Shown one piece after another: positions 1 through 11,303 of a DNA stretch of 11,573 bases (position 1 is its first letter; each line of letters begins with the position of its first letter). The position numbers and the translations under genes were made by a program. The stretch is from the NCBI GenBank assembly GCA_046726415.1, contig JBKPAK010000083.1, positions 1-11,573 on the forward strand, read 5' to 3'. This DNA comes from Candidatus Methylomirabilota bacterium. GTDB taxonomy: Bacteria > Methylomirabilota > Methylomirabilia > Rokubacteriales > CSP1-6. Below the pieces are notes generated by a model that did not search any database, was not told the origin of the DNA, and saw nothing but the letters and a program-made list of their open reading frames with translations.

Positions 1-376
1 TGCGCTCTACTCCGTGGAGCCGCACGTAGACCGCTCCGCCGACTACGTCAATGAGCTCCACGTCGATGCCGTGGTCGTGGAGGTGCCCGCGCACTGCGTC
101 GAGCGCCTCCTCGGCGACGAGCCGGCGATCCACCGCCAGCAGGTCGTACGACATCAGGAGGAGGCGGATGGCCGGATCGGAGGTCAGCCGGTTGATGAAG
201 GCCTCTCCGGCCATGCCTTGGATCGCCGCGACCAGACGCGTCAGCGCGGCGCGGTGGATTGCGTCGATGCCCTGGAGCAACGCTGTCACGCGAGCGCTGA
301 CGGCGGGATCGGAGTGCGACTCCAGGTCGGCGATGATCCGCCCGACCTCGTCGAGGAGATCGCGCTCCTGGCTCAC
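1..376 (-). CDS. NifU/NfuA-like domain protein (hydrogenase-associated Fe-S carrier-like), 3' end outside the window
   Basis: Not in the ORF track; translated by hand. GTG at 376-374 overlaps the protease TGA (GTGA) and the frame is open to the edge: MSQERDLLDEVGRIIADLESHSDPAVSARVTALLQGIDAIHRAALTRLVAAIQGMAGEAFINRLTSDPAIRLLLMSYDLLAVDRRLVAEEALDAVRGHLHDHGIDVELIDVVGGAVYVRLHGVER. The segment EEALDAVRGHLHDHGIDVELIDV..GAVYVRL.G matches the NifU_C pattern (EEALDxVRPxLxxHGGDVELVDVxxGxVxVRLxG). Confidence 0.8.
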   Translation of the reverse strand, partial: MSQERDLLDEVGRIIADLESHSDPAVSARVTALLQGIDAIHRAALTRLVAAIQGMAGEAFINRLTSDPAIRLLLMSYDLLAVDRRLVAEEALDAVRGHLHDHGIDVELIDVVGGAVYVRLHGVER

Positions 377-930
377 CGCGTCTTGACTCCGGTCTGGACC
401 GTGCCGCCAAGGGGGGCACGCGGCAAACGCGCGGCGGCGCCGTCGTCGCTGGCCAGTCTCACCACCAGATCGCACACCGCGTCAAAGCCTCGAGCCACCA
501 CGTCGCTGAACGCCTCGCCGAACTCGTGAATGGCCGGTTCGACTTCCACCACGACCACGTCGACGGGCAGGGCGCGGAAGTACCGTGCGACAATCAGAGT
601 GTTGTCGAGCGCGATGACGCCCGTCACCGCCTCGGCCACCGCGCGCTGGATCTCGTCGTTCCCGGGAAGCACGCCATCCCAGCGGTAGGCCGCCATCGTG
701 CCGGCTGACCGCCCTTCGCGCTCGACGCTCCCGACGACGACGGCTCGAGTGAAGCGCCGTTCCGGCGGCTCGTCCTCCAGCCACTGGACGACCGCGATGG
801 GGTTGTAGCTCAGATCCTCCACCACGATGTCACCGCTCCAGGTGCGAGTGGCCAGGCGGTCGGTCACGGCCACTCCGACGGAGTGATCGCGAAGGTTGCG
901 GTATCCCACGCCGGCCACCAGGACGCGCAC
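373..930 (-). CDS. Hydrogenase maturation endopeptidase-like protein (HybD/HyaD fold, degenerate active site)
   Basis: Likely GTG start at 930, 1 nt after the large-subunit stop (the ORF track start at 1209 overlaps the large subunit). N-terminus VRVLVAGVGYRNLRDHSVGVAV resembles the protease motif xLVxGxGNxLxxDDGxG. C-terminal VVVVEVEP...FGEAFSDVV resembles the family's 'v.v.g.eP....g..lS..v'. 185 aa. Confidence 0.8.
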   Translation of the reverse strand: MRVLVAGVGYRNLRDHSVGVAVTDRLATRTWSGDIVVEDLSYNPIAVVQWLEDEPPERRFTRAVVVGSVEREGRSAGTMAAYRWDGVLPGNDEIQRAVAEAVTGVIALDNTLIVARYFRALPVDVVVVEVEPAIHEFGEAFSDVVARGFDAVCDLVVRLASDDGAAARLPRAPLGGTVQTGVKTR

Positions 931-931
931 G

Positions 932-2839
932 CTACCCCGCGCCGTCCTCCGCGCCACAGGCGCAGGTGTTGACCTCACGGGTGATGACGCCGGCGTCCGT
1001 GTGGATGTGGGTCGTGCACGGCATGCACGGATCGAAGCTCCGGATCGCGCGGAGGACGTCGATGCCCTTGAACTGTCGCGGATCGTCCGTCTCCTCGAGG
1101 AGCGGAGTGTTGAGCACGGCCTCCTCGTAGGGCCCCGGCTGCCGCCAGCGATCGCTCGGGGAGGCATTCCAGGTCGAGGGCGTGAGGATCTGGTAGTTCG
1201 CCACCGCACCGCGGTCCAAGGTCAGGTGATGCGTCAGGTAGCCGCGCCCGGCCCCCCAGAACCCCACGCCCCGCTGCTCACCGCGCTTGGGAATCTCGAA
1301 GGGCGTGCTGGTCCGGGTGTCGCCGAGCTTCAGTCGAGCCATCGCCGCGAGCCAGTTGTTGAGGGCGACCAGCGCGGTGAAGCCCGTGCAGTACGCGCGG
1401 GCGCGGTTGCGCTCGAACGCGTTCCACACCGCGGGAACGCGCCACTCGACCTCGAGCTCCGGAAGGGCCCCCTTCGGCAACCGGAGCTTCAGGGACGTGC
1501 CCGTGGCCTCGATGAAGGGATTGTCGGGCAGCTTGCGCCCGGCCGCCGTGGTCCAGAGCCGGGCATAGGCGCCGGCTTCCATGGACTGGCGGTCCCAGCG
1601 GGGGGTGGTGTCCCAGGTGTACTTCTCCTTCCAGTTCTGGCCCTGGGGGCGAGGCTTGGTGACCTTGTTCCACGGGTGATAGGGCGAGAGCGGGTTGCCG
1701 ACCGGGTCGCTTGGGAAGCGCTGCCGCTGCCCGTGGCCCGCCCACTCCTCGTAATAGGACTGGTCAACGAACTCCTCGACGCCGATGTTCAGCGCGTGCA
1801 GGTTCGTGGTGACGAGTTCGCCCTCCATGATGACGCCGGGGGTTGCCCACCGGCGCTCTCCCCACGCGGCGGCATTGGCATAGGTCGCGTCGTAGGCGTC
1901 GGGATGGTCGAAGATGCCGCTGTCGATGAGGTTGGCACGGCGGCTCCCGACCTGCTTGTATGCGGGGTTCGCCTCGTAGAAGAACTCTGTCAGGTCGTCC
2001 CAGATCGCCGCCAGCTTCTTCGAGTAGTCGAAGAACTGGGCGAGCCGGGTGAACATCTCGTTCATGACGGTCAACGTGATCGTCGAGCTCATGCCGCCGG
2101 GGACGACGGTCTGCGGATGGGGGTACTTGCCGCAGATCAGCACGTAAGCCTCGCGTGCCACGCGGGTCATGTGCAGGGCCTCGAGGTAGAGCTTGCCGCT
2201 GAGCGGGTTCAGATCCTCCATCAGCTCGGCCATCGTCCGGAACCCGTGGATCTCGGCGTGCGGGGCTTCAGTCGACCGTGCGCGCCCCAGCAGCGATGGA
2301 TTGGTGGGGCCTACCATCGCCGCGGAGTAATCCGGTCCCGCCAGCAGGTGGAGATGGAGCGGATGATCGTAGAGAAACTCCAGCGCGAGGGCGAGGTTGC
2401 GGATGAGGACGCCAAGCGGAGGCGGCACACAGCCGATCGCCATCTCGATGGCCATCGCGGAGGTCACCGAATGGACGCCGCCACAGACACCGCAGGCCCG
2501 GCTCGTGATGTAGATCGCATCGCGCGGGTCGCGCCCGATCATGATGACCTCGTAGCCGCGGAAGAGCGTGGCGATCGAACGCGCTTCGAGGACCTTGCGC
2601 CCCTGAAAATCGGCCACCGTGTGAAAGGCCAGGGCCCCGGCGACGCGGGTCACGGGATCGAAGTCGAGAGACTTGATGTATCCGTTGCGAGCGAGCAGGT
2701 CCTCGATCCGCTCGGCGGTGAGCTGGGCCGGCGCGCCGCGCGGGATGGCGGTCGACGGCGCGTAGGGATCCGCAATGCCGGCGCGGAGGAACGGCTTGCC
2801 CTGCGCGTCGAACTCGATGGGAAGGTTCTTGAAGCACAT
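932..2839 (-). CDS. hylL: [NiFe]-hydrogenase large subunit, probably group 1l (Hyl)
   Basis: 635 aa. DPVTRVAG and FRGYE N-terminal motifs, L1 SRACGVCGGVH (2471-2503), HPLHLHLL, GKYPHP, AGRGYLTH, PSTWN, GPYEEA and L2 RSFDPCMPCTTH. RBS GAGGA upstream. The subgroup call rests on gene arrangement and on L1/L2 differing from group 1h (RICGICGDNH / DPCLPCGVH). Confidence 0.93.
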   Translation of the reverse strand: MCFKNLPIEFDAQGKPFLRAGIADPYAPSTAIPRGAPAQLTAERIEDLLARNGYIKSLDFDPVTRVAGALAFHTVADFQGRKVLEARSIATLFRGYEVIMIGRDPRDAIYITSRACGVCGGVHSVTSAMAIEMAIGCVPPPLGVLIRNLALALEFLYDHPLHLHLLAGPDYSAAMVGPTNPSLLGRARSTEAPHAEIHGFRTMAELMEDLNPLSGKLYLEALHMTRVAREAYVLICGKYPHPQTVVPGGMSSTITLTVMNEMFTRLAQFFDYSKKLAAIWDDLTEFFYEANPAYKQVGSRRANLIDSGIFDHPDAYDATYANAAAWGERRWATPGVIMEGELVTTNLHALNIGVEEFVDQSYYEEWAGHGQRQRFPSDPVGNPLSPYHPWNKVTKPRPQGQNWKEKYTWDTTPRWDRQSMEAGAYARLWTTAAGRKLPDNPFIEATGTSLKLRLPKGALPELEVEWRVPAVWNAFERNRARAYCTGFTALVALNNWLAAMARLKLGDTRTSTPFEIPKRGEQRGVGFWGAGRGYLTHHLTLDRGAVANYQILTPSTWNASPSDRWRQPGPYEEAVLNTPLLEETDDPRQFKGIDVLRAIRSFDPCMPCTTHIHTDAGVITREVNTCACGAEDGAG

Positions 2840-2854
2840 GGGATCCTCGCAGTC

Positions 2855-3118
2855 TCAGTGAAGCCCGAACACCCGAGCGGCCCGCCCGACGTGACTGTCG
2901 GCCGCTTCGAGACCGCCGAGCAGTGCCCCGAGCGCGCCGTTGATGATGGTGAGCTTCTGGGGCAGGGGGGCTGTGTGCCCCTGCACGAGCTCCAGCACGT
3001 CAGCGATCGCCGCGACGCTCCGCCGGGTGTCGAGGAGGGCCCAAGCGATGGCGATCAAGTAGCCGGCCAGAACGAGCACGACGGTGGCGACGGTGACCAG
3101 GGTGAGCGTCAGCAGCAT
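2855..3118 (-). CDS. Short single-pass membrane/coiled-coil protein (TM5 of 5)
   Basis: 87 aa. RBS GAGGAG. Hydrophobic N-terminus LLTLTLVTVATVVLVLAGYLIAIAWAL, followed by a heptad-like helix that aligns without gaps to TM3. Confidence 0.85.
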   Translation of the reverse strand: MLLTLTLVTVATVVLVLAGYLIAIAWALLDTRRSVAAIADVLELVQGHTAPLPQKLTIINGALGALLGGLEAADSHVGRAARVFGLH

Positions 3119-3128
3119 CGGCGGCTCC

Positions 3129-3437
3129 TCATTGGCACCGCTCCTCGAGCACGGTGGCCACCGTGTCGAGCTTCCGTTCGACGGCGCCGGCGGCGGTCAA
3201 CATGCCGCCCGCGACCTCGATCGTGGCGTTCAGCGCGGCGATGTTGGTCGTGTTGCGGGCGATGCCACCGGCCGCCTGGAGCGCCTCGGCGGCATAGCGC
3301 TGGATCGATCGAGCCGCACGCCAGGTGCGATGCAGGAGGTAGACGGCCAGAGGGACGAAGACGACCAGCGTGACCATCAAGCCGATCCACCAGATCGTGT
3401 AGACGGCTTGGGGAACGGCCGGGCCCGCCGGGCTCAT
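3129..3437 (-). CDS. Short single-pass membrane/coiled-coil protein (TM4 of 5)
   Basis: 102 aa. ATGA overlap with the TM3 stop. TM segment IWWIGLMVTLVVFVPLAVYLL, then ARSI...I..NT..I..L..T shared with TM1 and TM2. Confidence 0.85.
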   Translation of the reverse strand: MSPAGPAVPQAVYTIWWIGLMVTLVVFVPLAVYLLHRTWRAARSIQRYAAEALQAAGGIARNTTNIAALNATIEVAGGMLTAAGAVERKLDTVATVLEERCQ

Positions 3438-3742
3438 ATGCGACCCTGGCGGGAGACCGCCGCAATGAACGTCGCCAGGTTCGCGTCGATCGCCCTCAAG
3501 CCGTCGAGGATGTTGCTCAGGCCGCCGTTGAGCTTGGTCACGTAGGGGCCGAGGGCGTCGGTCTGCCGCTCGATGGCGCGAAGGCCAACACGGATCTTCG
3601 ACAGGTAGTTCACTGGCGCCACAAAGCGTGTCGCGGGGCCGCCGATGTCTTCGAGCTCCAGGGCGATGGCGCGCAAGAACAGCGCCAAGGCCACGAACAG
3701 GGCGGCGACGCCGACGACCGAGATGACGGTCAGCCCGACCAT
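3434..3742 (-). CDS. Short single-pass membrane/coiled-coil protein (TM3 of 5)
   Basis: Start placed at ATG 3742, 5 nt after the TM2 stop, rather than 3787; 102 aa. TM segment LTVISVVGVAALFVALALFL, then a heptad-like helix that aligns with TM5. Confidence 0.8.
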   Translation of the reverse strand: MVGLTVISVVGVAALFVALALFLRAIALELEDIGGPATRFVAPVNYLSKIRVGLRAIERQTDALGPYVTKLNGGLSNILDGLRAIDANLATFIAAVSRQGRI

Positions 3743-3747
3743 GACGT

Positions 3748-4080
3748 TTATCGCGACCGCTCCATGCCCAACACGCAGGCCGGACACCCCGGGCAGTGCT
3801 CGGCGTGCGCGATCAGGCGGGCGGAGGCGGCAACGATCCCCTTGGCGGAGTCCAAAATCTCGCCGGCAATGTGATTTGTCGTGTCAAGCAGGGCGATGTG
3901 GATCGTGTTGTTCGCGATCTGCTGTCCGACCGTCCAGATCGCGGACGCTCGCGATCGCACCTCCCGGGCCCCGCGAAGAATGAGCGTCAGCAGCGCGGCC
4001 ACGACCACGAGAACGACGGCGTACACGACAAGACTCACGACCCACATTTGCTGGATGGTGTCGGCGCCCACGTCAGTCAT
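3748..4080 (-). CDS. Short single-pass membrane/coiled-coil protein with C-terminal HxxHCxxCxxC (TM2 of 5)
   Basis: Start at ATG 4080 (ATGA overlap with the TM1 stop); 110 aa. TM segment WVVSLVVYAVVLVVVAALLTLIL. Ends LIAHAEHCPGCPACVLGMERSR. Confidence 0.85.
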   Translation of the reverse strand: MTDVGADTIQQMWVVSLVVYAVVLVVVAALLTLILRGAREVRSRASAIWTVGQQIANNTIHIALLDTTNHIAGEILDSAKGIVAASARLIAHAEHCPGCPACVLGMERSR

Positions 4081-4376
4081 GCTCTGCCGGCGGCGGCGTG
4101 GCTCTCGAGCGCCTCGACCAGCCTTCCGCACTTCGCCTCAATGGCGCGCACAGTGTCGAGCAGCTCTTCGGCCACTTCGTTGGTCGTCTCCAGCTCCCAG
4201 ATGGCTCGGGTGTTCGCGCGTATCGCCTCCGCCGCCCGGAGCGCGCGTGTCGCGTGGGCGACGATGCTTCGCGCGGTCAGCCAGATCGTGACGAGCAGGG
4301 CGGCGGCCACGAGGACGACCACGCCGGCCACGATCATCCAGAGCCGCCAGGCGGCCCAGAGCTCAGCGTCGGTCAT
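4077..4376 (-). CDS. Short single-pass membrane/coiled-coil protein (TM1 of 5)
   Basis: Start at ATG 4376 (MTDAELWAAW) with RBS GAGGA, overlapping the small-subunit end by 14 nt; 99 aa. TM segment LWMIVAGVVVLVAAALLVTIWL. Confidence 0.85.
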   Translation of the reverse strand: MTDAELWAAWRLWMIVAGVVVLVAAALLVTIWLTARSIVAHATRALRAAEAIRANTRAIWELETTNEVAEELLDTVRAIEAKCGRLVEALESHAAAGRA

Positions 4377-5667
4377 GGGTGTCCTCGCGGGCGGCGCTCT
4401 CATCGAGGTAGTCCCGGCGGGACCCGGGCCGATCGGCACCCCAGAAGCGTTCTTCTTCCCCGGGCGGCCGTCCCGGTTTCTTCGAACCCATCTGCTGCCA
4501 CTTGGTGTAGAAGAACTTCATGGCCCGGTCCGTTAGGGTCTGGGCCTGGACATGGGCCCATCCGCTCGGGACTTCTTGTAGCACGTCCCAGCGATGCTCG
4601 CGGTTCGCTTCGCGGTTCGACAGTCGCCGGAGCCGGCGCACGACGCCACCCACCCCCTTCGCCGCGAACGTCGAGAAGATCGCGCCCGGCGGAATCTTGT
4701 AGAACGGGCTGAACTTGTCCGGAAAGCCGGGCATCGTGCACCCGATGCAGATGCCCCCGGCCCGCATGCACCCGCCGATGTGGTTGATGGCGCCTCGCTG
4801 CACGATGTTGCAGTTGACGACGGGGCCCCAGCAGCCGATCTCCACCAGGCACTGCGGGTCGCCGTAGTGCTTGGCGAAGATGCCCTCCTCGTAGAACCCC
4901 GCTCGCGTGCAGCCCTGGTGCACGGTGTCGCGAAAGAGCCAGGCCGGCCGTCCCAGCTCGTCGAAGGTCGGCAGGGGCCCGAGCCCCTGCAGGAAGAGCA
5001 GCACGGCGAAGACGGTCTCCGTGAAGTTGTCGCCCTGCGGGGCGCACCCCGGGATGTTGATGACCGGGAGACCGAAAGCGCTCAGGTAGTCCTTGCCGAG
5101 GAAGTCCATGACGCTCATAGCGCCGGTGGGGTTGCCCTCGGCGGCCGGCACGCCGCCCCAGGTGGCGCACGTGCCAATCGCGATCGTCGCGGCGGCTCCC
5201 GAAGACAGGCGCCTCAGCCAGGTGGCCGTCGGCACCGGCCGATCGCCCTCCGTATCCGAGACGGTCTCGACGCCCATGGCACAGAAGTAGCCGCCTGTCC
5301 GCGCGGCAATACGCTCGTCGGGCACGGATCCCTCATAGACAACGACGTAGGGAGCACCTAGCTTGCCCTCGTATGCATCGCGGAACGACTTCACGAACTC
5401 CGCGCCCGCCTCGACGGACAGGACCGGATGATGAAGGATGACTTTCGGCATCGCGGGGACCGTTCCCGTCAGGAGCCCCTCGATGCCCGGATTGGTGGCC
5501 CCGGCCACCGAGATTGTGCAGCCGTCACAACTCATGCCGGCCAGCCAGTAGACGTGGATCGTCTTGAGGGGGCCCAGCGGAAGGTGTTGAACTCTCGGTT
5601 CCGGCTGCGTCTCGGGGATGGGCGGCTGCCCTCCCTCGATGACCTCGCGTTCCACCACGGTGGCCAT
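4363..5667 (-). CDS. hylS: [NiFe]-hydrogenase small subunit, probably group 1l (Hyl)
   Basis: 434 aa. RBS AAGGAG. Proximal ligands WLAGMSCDGC, YEGS, GTCATWGG, PGCAP; distal ligands TVHQGC...CL...GC; medial ligands NCN...GGC...GICIGC; PGFPD. No RRxFLK Tat peptide. Confidence 0.93.
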   Translation of the reverse strand: MATVVEREVIEGGQPPIPETQPEPRVQHLPLGPLKTIHVYWLAGMSCDGCTISVAGATNPGIEGLLTGTVPAMPKVILHHPVLSVEAGAEFVKSFRDAYEGKLGAPYVVVYEGSVPDERIAARTGGYFCAMGVETVSDTEGDRPVPTATWLRRLSSGAAATIAIGTCATWGGVPAAEGNPTGAMSVMDFLGKDYLSAFGLPVINIPGCAPQGDNFTETVFAVLLFLQGLGPLPTFDELGRPAWLFRDTVHQGCTRAGFYEEGIFAKHYGDPQCLVEIGCWGPVVNCNIVQRGAINHIGGCMRAGGICIGCTMPGFPDKFSPFYKIPPGAIFSTFAAKGVGGVVRRLRRLSNREANREHRWDVLQEVPSGWAHVQAQTLTDRAMKFFYTKWQQMGSKKPGRPPGEEERFWGADRPGSRRDYLDESAAREDTHDRR

Positions 5668-5686
5668 GGCTGGCTCCTTCGCTGCG

Positions 5687-6748
5687 CTAACAGATTCGCG
5701 GAAGCTGATCGCCCTGCAGCATGTCTACGATTCTCCGCCCGCCTACCCTGGTTCTCAGAACGATGAGGCAGGCCCCGTCCTCGACCACTTCACCCACCAC
5801 CCGCGCCTCGACGCCCTGCGGATGCTCGCGCATGGCTCCGATCACCCGGGCAGCATCCGCGCGCGCGACCACGGCCAGCAGTTTGCCCTCGTTGGCGACG
5901 TAGAGAGGGTCGAGACCGAGCAGTTCGCAGACTCCCCGCACGGGTTCGCGGACCGCGATGGCTTCCTCCTCGAGGACCATCCCGACGTGCGATCGCTGCG
6001 CGATCTCGTTCAGAGCGGTCGCCACGCCTCCGCGCGTGGGATCGCGCAGGCAGTGGATGTCGGCGCCGGTGGCCAGAATGGCCTGCGCGAGCCGGTGCAG
6101 GGGCGCGGTGTCGCTGGCGATGGGGGTCTCGAGCTCGAGCTCGGCGCGGGCCGCCATGATGGTCATTCCGTGGTCGGCGATAGCCCCACTCAGGATGACG
6201 ACATCGCCCGCCCGGGCGCGGTCCGCGGAGATGGGCTGGCCGTGCTCGACTACGCCGATTCCGGTCGTGGTAATGAAACAGCCATCCGCCTTACCCCGAT
6301 CAACGACCTTCGTGTCCCCCGCCACGAGGAGGACACCGGCGGCCTCCGCCGCCGCGCGCATCGACGTCACGATTCGCTGGAGGTCAGCGAGCGGGAACCC
6401 CTCCTCGAGAATGAAGGCGGCCGCGAGGTAGAGCGGCCGAGCCCCTGCCGTGGCGAGGTCGTTGATCGTGCCGTTGACGGCGAGCGTACCGATATCGCCC
6501 CCCGGGAAGAACAGCGGGGTGACGACGTAGGCGTCGGTGGTCAGAGCGAGGCGGGTGCCGCCGACACCCACCACCGCCTGATCGTCGAGCCTCTCCAGAT
6601 ACTCGTTGCGGAACGCGGGCAGGAAGCAGCGCGTGATCAGCTCGGCCGTCATCGTGCCGCCGCTTCCGTGACCCAGCATGATGCGGTCGGTGTCGCCGAG
6701 GGGCAGCGGACAGCTGAGGGTGAGTGGCATAGCGAGATCAGAGGACAT
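5687..6748 (-). CDS. hypE: Hydrogenase maturation carbamoyl dehydratase HypE
   Basis: GHGSGG, TTDAYVVTPLFFPGGDIG, NGTINDLA, GDTKVV, RDPTRGG, ANEGK and the C-terminal LPRIC with its terminal Cys. The start may be 6748 or 6730. Confidence 0.97.
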   Translation of the reverse strand: MSSDLAMPLTLSCPLPLGDTDRIMLGHGSGGTMTAELITRCFLPAFRNEYLERLDDQAVVGVGGTRLALTTDAYVVTPLFFPGGDIGTLAVNGTINDLATAGARPLYLAAAFILEEGFPLADLQRIVTSMRAAAEAAGVLLVAGDTKVVDRGKADGCFITTTGIGVVEHGQPISADRARAGDVVILSGAIADHGMTIMAARAELELETPIASDTAPLHRLAQAILATGADIHCLRDPTRGGVATALNEIAQRSHVGMVLEEEAIAVREPVRGVCELLGLDPLYVANEGKLLAVVARADAARVIGAMREHPQGVEARVVGEVVEDGACLIVLRTRVGGRRIVDMLQGDQLPRIC

Positions 6749-7319
6749 CGTCTTCCCCGAGCGCGACGTGAACCAGATCCCACACCACGTGATAGAGCGC
6801 GACGTGCGTCTCCTGGATGCGGTGAATGCTGAACGACGGCACGATGAAGCCGTGGTCGGCCAGGGCGGCCAGACGTCCCCCGTCCTTGCCGGTGAAGGCG
6901 ATGGTCAGCGCGCCTAGCTCACGCGCGACCTCCAGACCATGGACGAGGTTGGGGGACTGACCGCTCGTGCTGAGGGCCATGGCCATGTCGCCGGGCCGGG
7001 CCAGCAGACGCAGCTGATCGCCGAAGACCTTGGCGAAGTCGCGGTCGTTCGAGATCGCTGTGAGGAGCGCGTTGTCGGTGGTCAAGGCGATGGCCGGCAA
7101 CGGCCGGCGCTTCTCGAGGATGGGATGGCAGAACTCCACCGCGACGTGCTGGGCGTCCGTGGCGCCGCCCCCGTTGCCCATGACATAGAGCCGGCCGCCC
7201 TGCTGGAAGGAGACTGCCATGACGCGGACGAGGGCCTCGATCCGGTCCGCCTCCGCACGGAAGAATTGCTCCTTCACCTGGGCGCTTTCATGAGCCTTGC
7301 GAAGGATGGCAGACGTCAT
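6738..7319 (-). CDS. gmhA: GmhA-like SIS-domain protein (phosphoheptose isomerase family)
   Basis: 193 aa. [43 protein letters not shown] and RIQETH...H are GmhA/DiaA family motifs. ATGA overlap with hypD. The family call is solid; the actual function is uncertain. Confidence 0.88.
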
Positions 7320-8734
7320 TTGGACTGGGCACGGGCTCCCGGGCTATCGCCACGCCCGTGCCCCGCCGGAAGCACCGGCAGCGGTCGGTCATTCGCCCGA
7401 TCAGAGTCCCTACTACCGGTGTCGCCACGCCCGTGCCCCGCCGGAAGCACCGGCAGGGGTCGGTCGTTCGCCCGATCAGAGTCCCTACTACCGGTGTTGC
7501 CACGCCCGTGCCCCGCCGGAAGCACCGGCAGCGGTCGGTCATTCGCCCGATCAGAGTCCCTACTACCGGCGTCGCCACGCCCGTGCCCTGCCGGAAGCAC
7601 CGGCAGGGGTCGGTCGTTCACCCGGTCAGCGTCCGCCTCGCCGGCGTCGCGATGGCGACCGTATGCGTAGTAAGCGGCGCAGGCGCCCTCCGCGGACACC
7701 ATCGTGGCCCCGAGCGGATGCGCCGGAGTGCATCGCGTGCCGAACGCCGGGCAGTCGGGGGGCTTGCGGAGGCCGCGCAGGATCTGCCCGCTGATGCACT
7801 CAGCCGCCTCGTGCGTCTCGAGTGTCCCCACGTCGAAGCGGCGCTCGGCGTCGTACTCGCGGAACTCGTAGCGCAGCCTCAGGCCGGATTTCGGGATCGT
7901 CCCCACCCCGCGCCACTTCCGGTCACAGACTTCGAAAACGGACCACAGCAGCCGCTGCGCCGCGACGTTGCCGGCGTGGCCCACCACTCGGGAGTACTGG
8001 TTCTCCACCCCCGCCATTCCCGCTTCCAGCCGCCGCACCGTCCGGAGGACGCCGTCCAGGAGATCCACGGGCTCGAAGCCCGTGATCACGATCGGCACCC
8101 CGTAATGCCGGGCGATCGCCTCGTATTCGCGATAGCCCATGACCGTGCACACGTGGCCCGGGCCGAGGAACCCTCGCACCCGGTTCCCGGGCGATTGGAG
8201 CACTGCGGCGATGGCCGGGGGAACGAGCACGTGGGACACCAGCACCGTGAAGTTCGCCACCCCGAGCGCCCTGGCCCGCGTGACGGCCAGGGCGTTCGCC
8301 GGAGCCGTGGTCTCGAAACCGATGGCGAAGAACACGACCTCGCGAGCGGGATTGTCCTGGGCCAACCGCACGGCGTCGAGCGGCGCGTAGACGATGCGGA
8401 CGTCCGCGCCGGCCGACTTCAGCCGCAACAGATCGGTGTGAGAGCCCGGCACGCGCAGCATATCCCCGAACGAGGTGAAGATTACTTCGGGCCGTCGCGC
8501 GATCGCGTGCGCCTTGTCGATCTGCTCCAGCGAAGTGACGCAGACCGGGCATCCCGGACCGTGGACCAGCTCGATCTCGGACGGGAGGAGCCGATCGATG
8601 CCGTGCTTGACGATCGAGTGCGTCTGCCCGCCGCAGACCTCCATGAGCGTCCACGGTCGGGTGGTGACGCGCTGGATCTCGCGCAGGATCTTCCCCGCGA
8701 CCCGGCCGTCGCGATACTCATCGAGGTACTTCAT
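7316..8734 (-). CDS. hypD: Hydrogenase maturation protein HypD with a repetitive C-terminal extension
   Basis: True start MKYLDEY at ATG 8734 (ATGA overlap with the hypC stop); the ORF track start at 8986 overlaps hypC. Motifs [25 protein letters not shown] and C-terminal C..C..C..GACAAYY. 472 aa, including about 110 extra C-terminal residues. Confidence 0.96.
7351..7650. repeat. In-frame tandem repeat, 4 x 75 bp (25 aa) at the 3' end of hypD
   Basis: CACGCCCGTGCCC(C/T)GCCGGAAGCACCGGCAG recurs at 7351, 7426, 7501 and 7576. It encodes DR(A/V)[15 protein letters not shown](D/N)(T/A)GSRDS. The copy nearest the HypD core degenerates towards 7650. Confidence 0.97.
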
Positions 8735-8988
8735 GGGTCTGACTGCGGCACGCCGAGCTCCCCGAGCTGATCGAGCTCCTCGAGAAACCGGTACGTTCGC
8801 TCGGCCTCCTCGGGATCGACTCGGCTCAAGGCGAAGCCGACGTGGACGAGCACGTAGTCGCCCACGCCCGCCTCGGGCAGATGCTCCACACAGACCTTCT
8901 TGACGGTCCCCCCGAAATCCGCGCGGGCCATACGCAGTCCGCGGTCCTCGAAGATCTCCAAGACCTTTCCGGGAATGGCGAGGCACAT
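8731..8988 (-). CDS. hypC: Hydrogenase maturation chaperone HypC/HupF
   Basis: 85 aa. MCLAIPG and [17 protein letters not shown] overlap with hypF. Confidence 0.97.
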
Positions 8989-11303
8989 CAGGCGGGGTCC
9001 CTCAAGTTTAGGCGTCGCGCCGCGACCGCGGCCTGGCCGAGCGCGAGCCCGCCATCATTGGCCGGCACGTGACGATGAGAGTAGACCTCGAAGCCACGGG
9101 CCGCGAGGGAGTCCACGGCCGCCTCGAGAAGCCACACGTTCTGAAAGACGCCGCCGCTCAGAGCCACCGCCGACACGCGCAGCCGCTCGCGGATTCGCTC
9201 GCAGACTCGCGCGATCACGTCGGCCAGGGTGGCGTGGAACCGGGCCGCGATCCGGGCCGCTGGCACTTCGCCCAGCAGGTCATCGACGACGCCGCGAATC
9301 ACGTCTGGGGTGCGCACGACGATGACCCCTCCGTCCTCGGCCAGCGCCGTCGAATAGACGACGTCCGCTTGGCGCTCGGCCAGCGCTTCGAGCTCCATGG
9401 CCGCTTGTGCCTCGAACGCAATGCGGTCGCGCAGGCCGAGAAGGCTGGCCACCGCATCGAAGAGCCGGCCGGCGCTGGACGTCAATGGCGCGTTCAGCCC
9501 GTGGTCAATGGCGCGACTCAGCACGCGCCAGGCGGCGCGATCGAGGCGGCGCACGAAGGCCAAGTCGAGACCCGACATCCCCTCGCCATACGCCGCCCTC
9601 AAGAACGCCGCTGCCATGCGCCAAGGCTCGCGCACCGCGGCGTCGCCACCGGGCAGCGGCACCGGCTCGAAGTGACCGACGCGTTGGAAGTCGGCGAGGC
9701 CTCCGAGGAGGAACTCGCCTCCCCACACCGCTCCATCCCGCCCGTAGCCGGTGCCATCCCAGGCGACACCGATCACGCGCCGATCGACACCGTTGTCGGC
9801 CAGGCAGCTGGCGATGTGCGCATGGTGATGTTGGACGGCCATCGTCTCCACGCCTTCGAGCGATTGGGCATAAAGCGTTGAGCGGTACGCGGGGTGGAGA
9901 TCGTGCGCGGCGATTTTCGGCGAGCAGGCGAACAATGTTCGAAGATGGTCGATGGCATCGAGGAACGCGCGGAATGCGCGCTCGTCGGAGAGATCGCCCA
10001 GGTGCTGGCTGAGGAAGGCCTCATGGCCCTTGACGAGCGCCACGGTGCTCTTCAGCTCGCCCCCGCAGGCCAGGATGGGTCGCGGCGCCGCCACCGGCAG
10101 GCGGATGCCGAGCGGCACGTAGCCACGCGAACGACGCACGAGGCGCGGCGTATGCCGCACCACGCGCGCGACGGAGTCATCGCAGGGCGTCTGGATAGGT
10201 CGATCGTGCACGAGGAACAGATCGGCCACGCCGCGCAGGCGGTTGAGCGCGTCTTCGTCCGTGTATGCGATGACCTCCGCGCTGGCGTTTCCGCTGGTCA
10301 TGACGAGGGGCCGCTCCACGGCCTTAAGCAGCAGGTGATGGAGCGGCGTATAGGGGAGGAGAATCCCGAGGTCGGGGCTGCCTGGCGCGACCTCGCCCGC
10401 CACCGGTGCCTCACCGCGCCTGCTGACAAGCACGATCGGCCGCGCCGGCGATGTGAGAAGCTGCGCCTCCGCCTCGGAGATGCGGCACAGCGCGTGACCC
10501 ATCGCGAGGTCCCTCACCATCACGGCGAGCGGCTTCGCGTCGCGCCGCTTCCGCCGGCGGAGCTCGGCAACGGCGGGGCTGTTCGTCGCGTCGCACGCCA
10601 GATGGTATCCACCGACGCCCTTGACGGCGACAATCCCGCCAGCAATGACGGCGCGGGCAGTGGCCCCGACTGGGTCCGCGCACGCAACCGGGTCGCCGTC
10701 CGGTCCATGGAGGGTCAGCACCGGCCCACACCGCGGACAGCTGATGGTCTCGGCGTGAAGGCGGCGATCCTCCGGGTCTCCGTGCTCCGCCTGGCACAAT
10801 GCGCACATCCGGAAGGCGGCCATCGCCGTGCGTTCTCGGTCGTAGGGCAGCGTGCGCACGATCGTGAATCGGGGGCCACATGCCGCGCACGTCACGAATG
10901 GGTAGCCATAGCGGCGATCAGCTGGATCCGCGAGCTCACGCAGACAGTCGTCACAGGTCGCCAGGTCCGGGACGGGACACAGCTCGCCCACGCCGTCGCG
11001 AGTACTGGCCTCGATGGAAAACGAGGTCCGGGCGCGGGGCTCTCCCCACGTCACCGAGCGTCGGTGCGGTCGGCTTGCCGGCGGCGAGGCCTTATCCAGA
11101 TCGTCGAGGAAGTTCTTGACCGCATCCTCGTCACCTTCGACGTCGGCGACGACGCCCTGGAGGGAGTTCCAGACCGATCCAGTTAGCGCGTGATGGACAG
11201 CCAGCCGGTAGAGGAATGGCCGGAACCCCATGCCCTGGACGACCCCTTCAATGGCGATCGTGCAGCGCCGCATGCGAGCCGAATCACCCCAGCGGGCGAC
11301 CAT
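8988..11303 (-). CDS. hypF: Carbamoyltransferase HypF
   Basis: 771 aa. Acylphosphatase-like [11 protein letters not shown]; two zinc fingers (CDDC...CAACGPR and CALC...CPRCGP); YrdC-like [10 protein letters not shown] and RRSRGY; Kae1-like HDLHP, QHHHAH, DGTGYG and [23 protein letters not shown]. Confidence 0.97.

Follow-up and report, generated by a model that had tools for sequence, protein, structure and literature searches.

The accessory protein HucM of the group 2a hydrogenase Huc (Mycobacterium smegmatis) is a coiled coil through which a hydrogenase that is soluble, insensitive to oxygen and of high affinity is connected with quinone in the membrane. HucM is one protein, with a homo-oligomeric C-terminal tube. 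In respiratory group 1 hydrogenases, the coupling of enzyme to quinone is the role of Ni_hydr_CYTB (PF01292) anchors. CoxG of Mo-CODH is described as an accessory protein, tethered to the membrane, that supplies a soluble trace-gas oxidoreductase with quinone (PMC12202499). Group 1l hydrogenases, reported as the most abundant atmospheric-H2 oxidisers of Antarctic desert soils, have the HylTM1-5 proteins as their reported hallmark (Ortiz et al., 10.1101/2020.08.06.239558; PMC9561532). Their best solved relative is reported to be group 1h, and an AlphaFold3 model of Hymenobacter HylTM1-5 shows a tube-like scaffold directed towards the quinone pool (PMC13554262, Nat Commun 2026). Group 1m clusters are reported to contain two unnamed small single-helix proteins (PMC9561532).

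We analysed a window of 11,573 nucleotides, which is the whole of contig C83 (JBKPAK010000083.1) of a Candidatus Methylomirabilota genome. Between positions 5667 and 932, its minus strand carries a hydrogenase small subunit gene (SSU), five small genes (TM1-5) and a large subunit gene (LSU), in that order. The relevant features are listed below; for TM1-5, the start positions are likely starts.

4366..5667, minus strand: HylS, [NiFe]-hydrogenase small subunit, 434 aa; Pfam PF01058 and PF14720
4080..4376, minus strand: HylTM1 (family A), 99 aa; ATG at 4376, stop codon at 4077-4079
3751..4080, minus strand: HylTM2 (family A), 110 aa; ATG at 4080, in an ATGA overlap with the TM1 stop
3772..3807, minus strand: TM2 C-terminal motif H92-x3-C96-P-G-C99-P-A-C102-V103
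3437..3742, minus strand: HylTM3 (family B), 102 aa; ATG at 3742
3132..3437, minus strand: HylTM4 (family A), 102 aa; ATG at 3437, in an ATGA overlap with the TM3 stop
2858..3118, minus strand: HylTM5 (family B), 87 aa; ATG at 3118, GAGGAG upstream
935..2839, minus strand: HylL, [NiFe]-hydrogenase large subunit, 635 aa; Pfam PF00374
373..931, minus strand: hydrogenase maturation protease (TIGR00072, E 1.2e-9)
2..475, minus strand: NifU-like ORF (PF01106), cut by the contig end

The first-pass annotation had described five coupled ORFs of 87-110 aa within 2855-4376, and all five lie there on the minus strand. The TM1 start and the small-subunit stop overlap by 14 nt. TM1-5 share a transcript with hylS and hylL and are translationally coupled to them. 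In related loci, neighbouring genes overlap or stand no more than 20 nt apart in 34/48, 42/48, 46/46 and 43/45 pairs. A profile search of the window's own genome returned three family A and two family B matches, every one within the window, and the genome has a single [NiFe] large-subunit gene, which matches PF00374 in two pieces.

HylS carries ~70 extra C-terminal residues (366-434). Its best PDB match was 5AA5_A (E 2.5e-108), in an alignment confined to residues 25-365, and HylS residue 25 aligns with residue 11 of this cytosolic group 1h small subunit; neither a twin arginine nor a Tat signal was found at the HylS N terminus. HylL matched 5AA5_C best (E 6.9e-157) and is 88-93% identical to its counterparts in Rokubacteria/Methylomirabilota MAG loci and 79-80% identical to those in MGR_bin MAG loci. 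Searches with cytochrome b family PF01292 gave no matches among the window ORFs or in the whole 98%-complete genome, and control genomes were positive. The first-pass picture of a cytoplasmic hydrogenase, with a Tat-less small subunit and no cytochrome b gene in the window, therefore stands, and PF01292 also revealed no cognate cytochrome b elsewhere in the genome. The missing Tat signal, the lack of a PF01292 match and the cytosolic nature of the closest solved enzyme point to a need for a membrane anchor. Although the HylTM proteins would share the role of PF01292 anchors in coupling hydrogenase to quinone, they have one helix each and match no haem-binding family, and their enzyme is cytoplasmic, not periplasmic.

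The window genes are the already described HylTM1-5 system: as in group 1l, five single-helix proteins are encoded between the subunit genes of a Tat-less, 1h-like hydrogenase. MGR_bin286, 258 and 9 (L007, L008 and L011), MAGs of the study that defined group 1l, contain 1:1 orthologs of all five (phmmer E 1e-17 to 1e-47), and the MGR_bin label is the one used in the preprint (10.1101/2020.08.06.239558). The earlier recognition of the short TM ORFs as the group 1l hallmark agrees with the literature (10.1101/2020.08.06.239558; PMC9561532). For the large subunit, the identity to MGR_bin counterparts and the group 1h enzyme as best solved relative are indirect signs of a probable place in group 1l. 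The host lineage is another than in the known system, which comes from Hymenobacter roseosalivarius and Antarctic MAGs. Unlike the MGR_bin MAGs, the window's nearest relatives, Rokubacteria/Methylomirabilota MAGs, are unnamed in the preprint text (10.1101/2020.08.06.239558). The window itself is no new kind of system, and the idea of a stalk that reaches quinone is already in print. The main texts on group 1l make no mention of paralogy, the Cys motif or selenocysteine, on which their supplements may bear. Within the literature searched, four features described below are not mentioned: the A/B paralogy, the two-gene, four-gene and split 3+2 variants, the TM2 motif and the set within a cox cluster.

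We consider it fairly probable that these genes encode the HylTM1-5 proteins of a [NiFe]-hydrogenase of group 1l type, cytoplasmic and Tat-less, and that the five form a membrane stalk. The cell would produce equal amounts of the five HylTM proteins, and these would assemble as a hetero-oligomeric stalk of helices that keeps soluble HylSL on the inner side of the membrane. With HylSL held there, H2 electrons could reach the respiratory quinone without a cytochrome b subunit. The single 3+2 pentamer proposed in the first-pass annotation is one form that the stalk may take.

To compare the five proteins, we used Smith-Waterman alignment of the soluble parts only, with 500 shuffles. Sequence comparison confirmed that TM1, TM2 and TM4 form one family (A) and TM3 and TM5 another (B). 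Within family A, z was 11.6 for TM1-TM2, 9.7 for TM1-TM4 and 7.5 for TM2-TM4; within family B, z was 7.0 for TM3-TM5. All four alignments were ungapped, and 0/500 shuffles reached any of these scores. Among the cross-family pairs, 5/6 were not significant and TM1-TM3 was borderline (z 3.8, 1/500 shuffles). Profile-profile alignment with hhalign gave 98.4-98.8% within A (E 5e-17 to 9e-15) and 98.6% within B (E 6e-16), far beyond the best of 25 reversed-profile controls (E 1.4e-4). The two gap-free subfamilies proposed from the letters alone therefore hold up under both methods. Between A and B, hhalign gave 93.5% (E 2.4e-7) in an alignment that matches up a threonine motif common to the two families. 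This suggests that A and B are homologous, although the similarity is just 1-3 orders of magnitude past the best reversed-profile control. The two clear paralog families, together with this suggested link, agree with the first-pass proposal that the five arose by duplication.

The common motif is [IV]-x3-T-x2-[ILV], close to the (I/V)xx(N/Q/H)Txx(I/L) pattern first noticed in all five proteins. Its threonine is kept in 48/48 TM1, 48/48 TM2, 45/46 TM4, 46/48 TM3 and 39/47 TM5 orthologs. FastTree with SH-like supports and midpoint roots recovered a TM1 clade, a TM4 clade (support 0.998) and a TM5 clade (support 0.981); we claim no order of duplication beyond clade membership. Neither Pfam nor NCBIfam contains a family for any of TM1-5. 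The matches that fell short were TM4 with Pfam DUF4381 (E 0.008, below the cut-off), TM1 with NF006399, succinyl-diaminopimelate desuccinylase (partial, E 0.00022; 20.3 bits, where the cut-off is 381), and TM2 with the NCBIfam FtsN model (partial, E 0.063, far below the cut-off). Matches in the ESM Atlas were to clusters named hypothetical protein and to one "Secreted protein family protein", with no Pfam family in common.

The survey covered 80 related loci, with no Hymenobacter roseosalivarius sequences among them. TM1-TM5 orthologs occur in the same order in 47/48 loci with an inter-subunit gap of 1.36-2.0 kb. According to the record labels, these loci come from Gemmatimonadota, Acidobacteriota, Chloroflexota, Verrucomicrobiota, Gemmatales, Armatimonadota, Meiothermus and Rubrobacteraceae, so that the five-gene synteny spans many phyla. 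Since 1:1 orthologs extend across phyla, we rejected the possibility that TM1-5 are spurious ORFs. In a 121-genome phylum sample, a large subunit at least 90% identical was present in four genomes, all four of which had three family A matches on the same contig (3/3 without the unpublished genome G029). The nine genomes of this sample with only distant hydrogenases gave no A match (0/9), a pattern in favour of an exclusive link to this enzyme type.

One family A protein carries a distinctive feature that the first-pass annotation had missed. At its membrane-distal tip, TM2 contains the motif H-x3-C-x2-C-x2-C (H-x3-C-P-x-C-P-x-C), present in 35/49 loci, whose cysteines are almost the only ones in the five proteins. 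In nine Rubrobacteria genomes, one of them unpublished (G168), the middle cysteine codon is replaced by an in-frame TGA. Past the TGA, all nine loci retain the reading frame and encode P-x-C-[VA]-L-G-R-G-Q-G. We checked two of these genomes, G121 and G122, for selenocysteine machinery; selB and tRNA-Sec were above the cut-offs in both, and selA was above the cut-off in G122 and partial in G121. We therefore regard the Rubrobacteria TM2 orthologs as candidate selenoproteins. Residues that co-vary with the TM2 motif were TM3 Q99, TM4 R100 and TM5 H48, a pattern confounded by phylogeny.

A hairpin of 6 bp with a 4-nt loop begins 9 nt past the TGA and is kept in 9/9 TGA loci. Variation in it is limited to a single wobble substitution and a double compensatory one, which comes from the unpublished genome. 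We rejected thermodynamic stability as evidence for a SECIS element, as the folding energies were no better than those of shuffled sequences (z -0.27 and +0.18) and similar hairpins are common in the Cys orthologs. An Rfam search around the TGA of one such locus (L061) gave no match.

The motif is probably a redox-active or metal-binding site. One explanation is that the stalk has an active redox component, with CPxC/CPxU at the TM2 tip serving as a thiol/selenol redox site or as a set of metal or FeS ligands, with a role in passing on electrons, in reactivating the oxygen-exposed hydrogenase or in protecting it. We think this possible, while leaning against it; it is compatible with a role as an anchor. 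The presence of the motif in otherwise nearly Cys-free proteins, the retained frame beyond each TGA and the accompanying selenocysteine genes all favour such a component, as does the report that thiol redox proteins with CxxU-type motifs account for most Cys-to-Sec conversions (PMC1794560). However, the motif is missing from 11 of the 48 five-gene loci and from the four-gene systems, and thus cannot be essential for anchoring. Also, the hairpin is short, without Rfam match and resembled by hairpins in Cys orthologs, and an AlphaFold2 model shows TM2 as non-helical over residues 96-110, with reduced confidence. If the TM2 tip is redox-active or binds metal, the stalk may exceed a passive tether, and the Cys/Sec site indicates which residues to mutate.

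Not all loci have five genes, a variation that the first-pass annotation did not include. In L029, one A and one B gene lie between the subunit genes; as this contig is only 3.2 kb long, further genes may lie outside it. Four-gene systems (L077, L079 and L080) have the order A-B-A-B, and in L045 the TM1-TM2-TM3 orthologs form one cluster and the TM4-TM5 orthologs another, with the enzyme genes between the two. These two-, four- and split-gene sets suggest that the A+B pair, not a fixed 3+2 set, is the basic unit, and the variable gene number does not imply a single obligatory pentamer. Possibly, then, the proteins form separate A-B heterodimers or sub-complexes, such as TM1-TM2-TM3 and TM4-TM5 modules that dock separately. 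The split, four-gene and two-gene loci would fit such modules, although L029 is weakened as an example by its short contig, and both the tight coupling of the five genes and the published model (PMC13554262) fit a single assembly. We therefore find separate sub-complexes rather doubtful. For a membrane stalk, the two protein families, the A+B pair as its likely unit and the natural two-, four- and five-gene variants provide experimental handles.

L045 is a probable group 1m locus, as judged by gene content. As described for group 1m clusters, its subunit genes are adjacent and are accompanied by genes for a TPR protein, a CooC-like ATPase, NifU and a protease. Its A/B members include a TM4-like and TM5-like pair; unlike group 1m, it has five members in two clusters rather than two.

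The A/B families also occur beside a different enzyme. A cox (CO dehydrogenase) cluster of the actinobacterial genome G336 includes an A-A-B-A-B set, which suggests that one docking solution is common to trace-gas enzymes. We counted this set as support for a HylTM role that would be independent of the partner enzyme. The same cluster encodes CoxG, which, unlike HylTM, belongs to an unrelated fold and family (PF06240) and has a C-terminal membrane helix (PMC12202499); the passages on CoxG in that paper make no mention of five small genes. Tentatively, and with some doubt, the A/B helices may be a general modular docking stalk of soluble trace-gas oxidoreductases (Hyl, probable group 1m and Mo-CODH) that is redox-active in many lineages, with the CPxC(U)PxC tip of TM2, which would be a selenoprotein in Rubrobacteria, as the last electron-transfer or quinone-handling site, or as a protective site, between enzyme and membrane.

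Each of TM1-5 has one N-terminal 19-residue window with a mean Kyte-Doolittle value of 2.4-3.2. Lys and Arg are enriched on the C-terminal side of the membrane helix in 43-46 of the 46-48 orthologs per TM group, and the topology is therefore N-out, C-in. The soluble parts have a hydrophobic periodicity of 3.4-3.5 residues, reached by 0-12/1000 shuffles. Thus, each HylTM is a single-pass protein whose membrane helix runs on into a cytoplasmic heptad helix of ~60 residues, in agreement with the single TM helix and heptad-like helix originally described. An AlphaFold2 monomer model of TM2 (mean pLDDT 80.6) is a single unbroken helix over residues 6-95, and that of TM3 (mean pLDDT 85) has helices at 2-33 and 46-101 joined by a loop at 34-45. 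Complex prediction on TM2+TM3+TM4+TM5 (paired alignments A2-A5, with TM5 as the partner) gave scores of 0.32, 0.31 and 0.29, where the mark was 0.32, which speak neither for nor against binding.

The heptads differ between the families. Family B has canonical a/d heptads, with large hydrophobic residues at a fraction of 0.72-0.86 of a/d positions, and family A has a wider hydrophobic face in which small residues are abundant. If the helices enclosed a hollow hydrophobic tube, they might act, like HucM, as a conduit that takes menaquinone out of the membrane and up to the distal FeS cluster in HylS. In favour of a conduit are the wide face of family A, the published tube-like AlphaFold3 scaffolds, in which the distal cluster comes to lie close to the membrane domains (PMC13554262), and the precedent of Mo-CODH, whose accessory protein CoxG is established to extract quinone (PMC12202499). 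Family B profiles also resemble designed multi-helix coiled coils (sc-apCC-6-SLLA, E 1.4e-5; sc-CC-5-24, E 0.003-0.056), but these matches are compositional, and the a/d pattern of family B fits an ordinary tight coiled coil, not a barrel. PDB searches with the five TM profiles (E ≤10 for profiles A2 and A3; E ≤1 for A1, A4 and A5) returned no natural relative and none of the Huc entries 7UTD, 7UUS, 7UUR and 8DQV. The likeness to HucM is one of functional analogy only. HylTM draws its five distinct chains from two families, and every chain begins with a membrane helix. A quinone conduit is unlikely.

It is very unlikely that TM1-5 are assembly or targeting factors that act in maturation only and are absent from the mature enzyme: their genes lie amid the maturation genes hypCDEF, the protease gene and the NifU-like ORF, but are interposed among and coupled with the structural genes, not the hyp genes, and the same set lies beside Mo-CODH, an enzyme with different maturation needs.

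Downstream of HylL, the protease domain occupies residues 97-251 of an ORF listed to 1209, so that the true start of the protease is internal. L018, a close relative, has a NifU-domain ORF in which NifU is fused to a Rieske domain. The window's NifU-like ORF is probably the N-terminal part of such a NifU+Rieske (HylE-like) protein, a Rieske-type partner that the first-pass annotation had missed. Rieske-type HylE, encoded beside the hydrogenase genes in relatives, represents another possible route for electrons.

Every gene of the window is on the minus strand, with the five small genes TM1-TM5 (HylTM1-5) placed between the two subunit genes of a group 1l-type hydrogenase. In gene order, the features are:

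11303-8988, minus: hypF, first in the window
minus, after hypF: hypC, hypD, a SIS-domain gene and hypE, in that order
5667-4366, minus: [NiFe]-hydrogenase small subunit, after hypE
minus, between the small and large subunits: five small ORFs, TM1-TM5
3772-3807, minus: Cys motif of TM2 (H92, C96, C99, C102)
2839-935, minus: [NiFe]-hydrogenase large subunit, after the five small ORFs
minus, after the large subunit: maturation protease, then a NifU-like ORF truncated at the contig end

The contig, which is the entire window, belongs to a 7.6-Mb genome that is 98% complete. From their likely starts, TM1-TM5 are 99, 110, 102, 102, and 87 amino acids long, in agreement with the coordinates in the first-pass annotation. 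TM1/TM2 and TM3/TM4 overlap at ATGA, and the remaining spacers are 5-15 nt.

As that annotation had proposed, each protein contains a single strongly hydrophobic segment, at the N terminus, followed by a heptad-like amphipathic helix; the hydrophobic periodicity of the soluble parts is 3.4-3.5 residues, matched by 0-12 of 1000 shuffles. Lys and Arg are enriched C-terminal of the helix in 43-46 of the 46-48 orthologs per group, which puts the C-terminal domain on the cytoplasmic side. In family B (TM3 and TM5), clean a/d heptads extend over some eight repeats; in family A (TM1, TM2, and TM4), the a position is strong and small residues are abundant at d/e. AlphaFold2 monomer models predict one helix for TM2 (residues 6-95) and a helix-loop-long helix for TM3. 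Searches of Pfam and NCBIfam detected no curated family for the five proteins, and their profiles found no solved relative in the PDB.

The division into two gap-free subfamilies held when the soluble parts alone were aligned (z 7.5-11.6 for TM1/2/4 and 7.0 for TM3/5, each reached by 0/500 shuffles). Five of the six cross-family pairs were not significant, and TM1-TM3 was borderline (z 3.8, 1/500 shuffles). Using hhalign with profiles of 46-48 orthologs, within-family probabilities were 98.4-98.8% for A and 98.6% for B; among 25 reversed profiles, the best E value was 1.4e-4. The relation between families was weaker: TM1 versus TM5 gave 91-93.5% (E 1e-6 to 2.4e-7, 79-84 columns), and TM3 versus any A profile gave 4-12%. 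A motif said to be common to all five, [IV]-x3-T-x2-[ILV], is conserved in every group (Thr in 39/47 to 48/48 orthologs) and is superposed in the TM1-TM5 profile alignment. At one related locus (L017:5281-5619), where four genes remain, the N-terminal half of TM3 runs straight into the C-terminal half of TM4, with the junction precisely at the I-x3-T motif. This apparent chimera supports a common A/B register, with the caveat that it comes from a single MAG and could be an assembly error.

To survey relatives, we scanned with the large subunit, which gave 727 relatives, and retained the best 80 loci. Both subunit genes were visible in 56 sequences, including the window, and 48 of these had a gap of 1.36-2.0 kb between them. 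TM1-TM5 orthologs occupied this gap in the same order at 47 of the 48 loci, the exception being the L017 chimera, and adjacent TM genes overlapped or were at most 20 nt apart in most loci. Other loci carried variant sets. Three from Blastocatellia/Pyrinomonadales (L077:2487-3862, L079:3189-4542, and L080:2778-4122) have an A-B-A-B set upstream of subunit genes that adjoin each other; in a tree, the one TM1/2-like A gene of each groups next to the TM2 clade, together with the A gene from L029. At L029 itself, on a contig of just 3.2 kb, a single A gene and a single B gene separate the subunit genes (539-1229). In two actinomycetotal loci, 1:1 orthologs are split on the opposite strand, as TM1-TM2-TM3 and TM4-TM5 in L045 (3500-4461 and 11333-11919) and as TM1 and TM2 only plus TM4-TM5 in L009. 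By gene content alone, L045 resembles group 1m as described in sections of PMC9561532, and it is probably a group 1m locus. No A or B gene was seen within the DNA examined at L006 and L048.

Cysteine is nearly absent from the five proteins except in H-x3-C-P-x-C-P-x-C-V at the TM2 C terminus, found at 35 of 49 loci, which we read as a candidate redox-active or metal-binding site. Because it is missing from 11 of 48 five-gene loci, the motif is an addition rather than part of the core function. In two Rubrobacteraceae loci, the apparent TM2 stop is a TGA exactly at the middle Cys position (L061:5051-5053 and L072:5061-5063), and readthrough regains P-x-C-V-L-G-R-G and ends just ahead of TM3. 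Among 81 genomes of the class Rubrobacteria, 14 carried TM2. Nine of these, one unpublished (G168), keep C-P-[GM]-TGA-P-x-C-[VA]-L-G-R-G-Q-G; of the others, one unpublished genome has an odd form and four lack the motif. Both TGA-form genomes checked encode selA, selB, and tRNA-Sec in one cluster. The TGA-form TM2 is a candidate new selenoprotein. A 6-bp hairpin begins 9 nt past the TGA in 9/9 genomes; it shows one wobble change and, in the unpublished G168, one double compensatory change. Its tetraloop includes the G and U that matter in the fdhF element of E. coli. Since hairpins of this kind often occur in Cys orthologs too and its folding energy does not stand out, the hairpin alone is weak evidence. 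In the portions consulted, Zhang et al. (2006; PMC1794560) count Rubrobacter xylanophilus among Sec-decoding organisms and report that most Cys-to-Sec conversions affect thiol redox proteins carrying CxxU-type motifs. A literature search on selenoproteins with Rubrobacter plus hydrogenase or transmembrane retrieved no paper describing the TM2 motif.

The A and B genes of the host genome are confined to the window, and the genome has one [NiFe] large-subunit gene. Among 121 sampled genomes of the phylum, family A matches occurred in five. Where the large subunit was at least 90% identical, three A matches lay on the same contig in all four genomes (3/3 without the unpublished G029), and 0/9 genomes with only distant hydrogenases had a match; in G111, the match lies at a contig edge and the large subunit was not found. 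More broadly, 2147 of 8000 candidate clusters scored matched family A at E ≤ 1e-5. The best 120 of the 2147 contained no Pfam domain, and those with names were mostly hypothetical proteins.

One A/B set lies away from the hydrogenase genes. In an actinomycete (G336), the single match to the TM2-derived profile at E ≤ 1e-6 is away from the hydrogenase, which is on contig C5. At L120 (G336:C9:286000-304000, about 5190-6500), five small membrane genes in A-A-B-A-B order sit inside a cox cluster of this one genome, flanked by a coxM-coxS pair and by coxM, coxS-coxL, coxD, coxE, and coxG. The sections seen of the CoxG paper (PMC12202499) do not mention such genes. If this pattern is general, the module's role would be in coupling to membrane and quinone rather than in maturing the hydrogenase.

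Among solved hydrogenases, the best match to both window subunits is by a wide margin the cytosolic group 1h enzyme 5AA5: E is 6.9e-157 for the large and 2.5e-108 for the small subunit, against about 1e-50 and 5e-45 for the respective runners-up. The small subunit carries some 70 additional residues at its C terminus. The reported lack of a cytochrome b gene extends to the host genome (98% complete), where PF01292 was not found. L018, a close relative, has a NifU+Rieske fusion (8622-9314) after the large subunit and before the protease. The order is different in the window, where the protease directly follows the large subunit; the NifU-like ORF (2-475, minus) is next, running incomplete off the contig end. 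Given the L018 fusion, the window ORF is probably the start of a Rieske-type HylE, a candidate electron carrier that the first-pass annotation overlooked.

In its available text, the Ortiz et al. preprint (10.1101/2020.08.06.239558) is where group 1l is defined and its five interposing proteins are given the names HylTM1-5; PMC9561532 restates this, and PMC13554262 reports an AlphaFold3 model; a full-text search for "HylTM" returned only these three among relevant papers. The mechanism first suggested, a stalk linking a cytoplasmic hydrogenase to quinone, is therefore already in print as a prediction: the observations stand, and the interpretation holds in part and is mostly published. In what is accessible of their main texts, supplements aside, these papers mention neither paralogy, the Cys motif, nor selenocysteine. 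What makes the present finding useful is the set of handles it gives for comparison: the A/B unit, the naturally occurring variants, the Cys/Sec tip of TM2, and the link to cox genes.

Two further features concern the hyp genes. At its 3′ end, the hypD ORF carries an in-frame tandem repeat of 75 bp (7347-7634; 3.8 copies, 93% matches) that lengthens the ORF by ~100 residues past the HypD domain; the L018 relative has no such extension. The SIS-domain (GmhA-like) gene (6738-7319, minus) sits between hypD and hypE, as it does at L018:300-2087, and adjoins hypE at L045:1871-3109.
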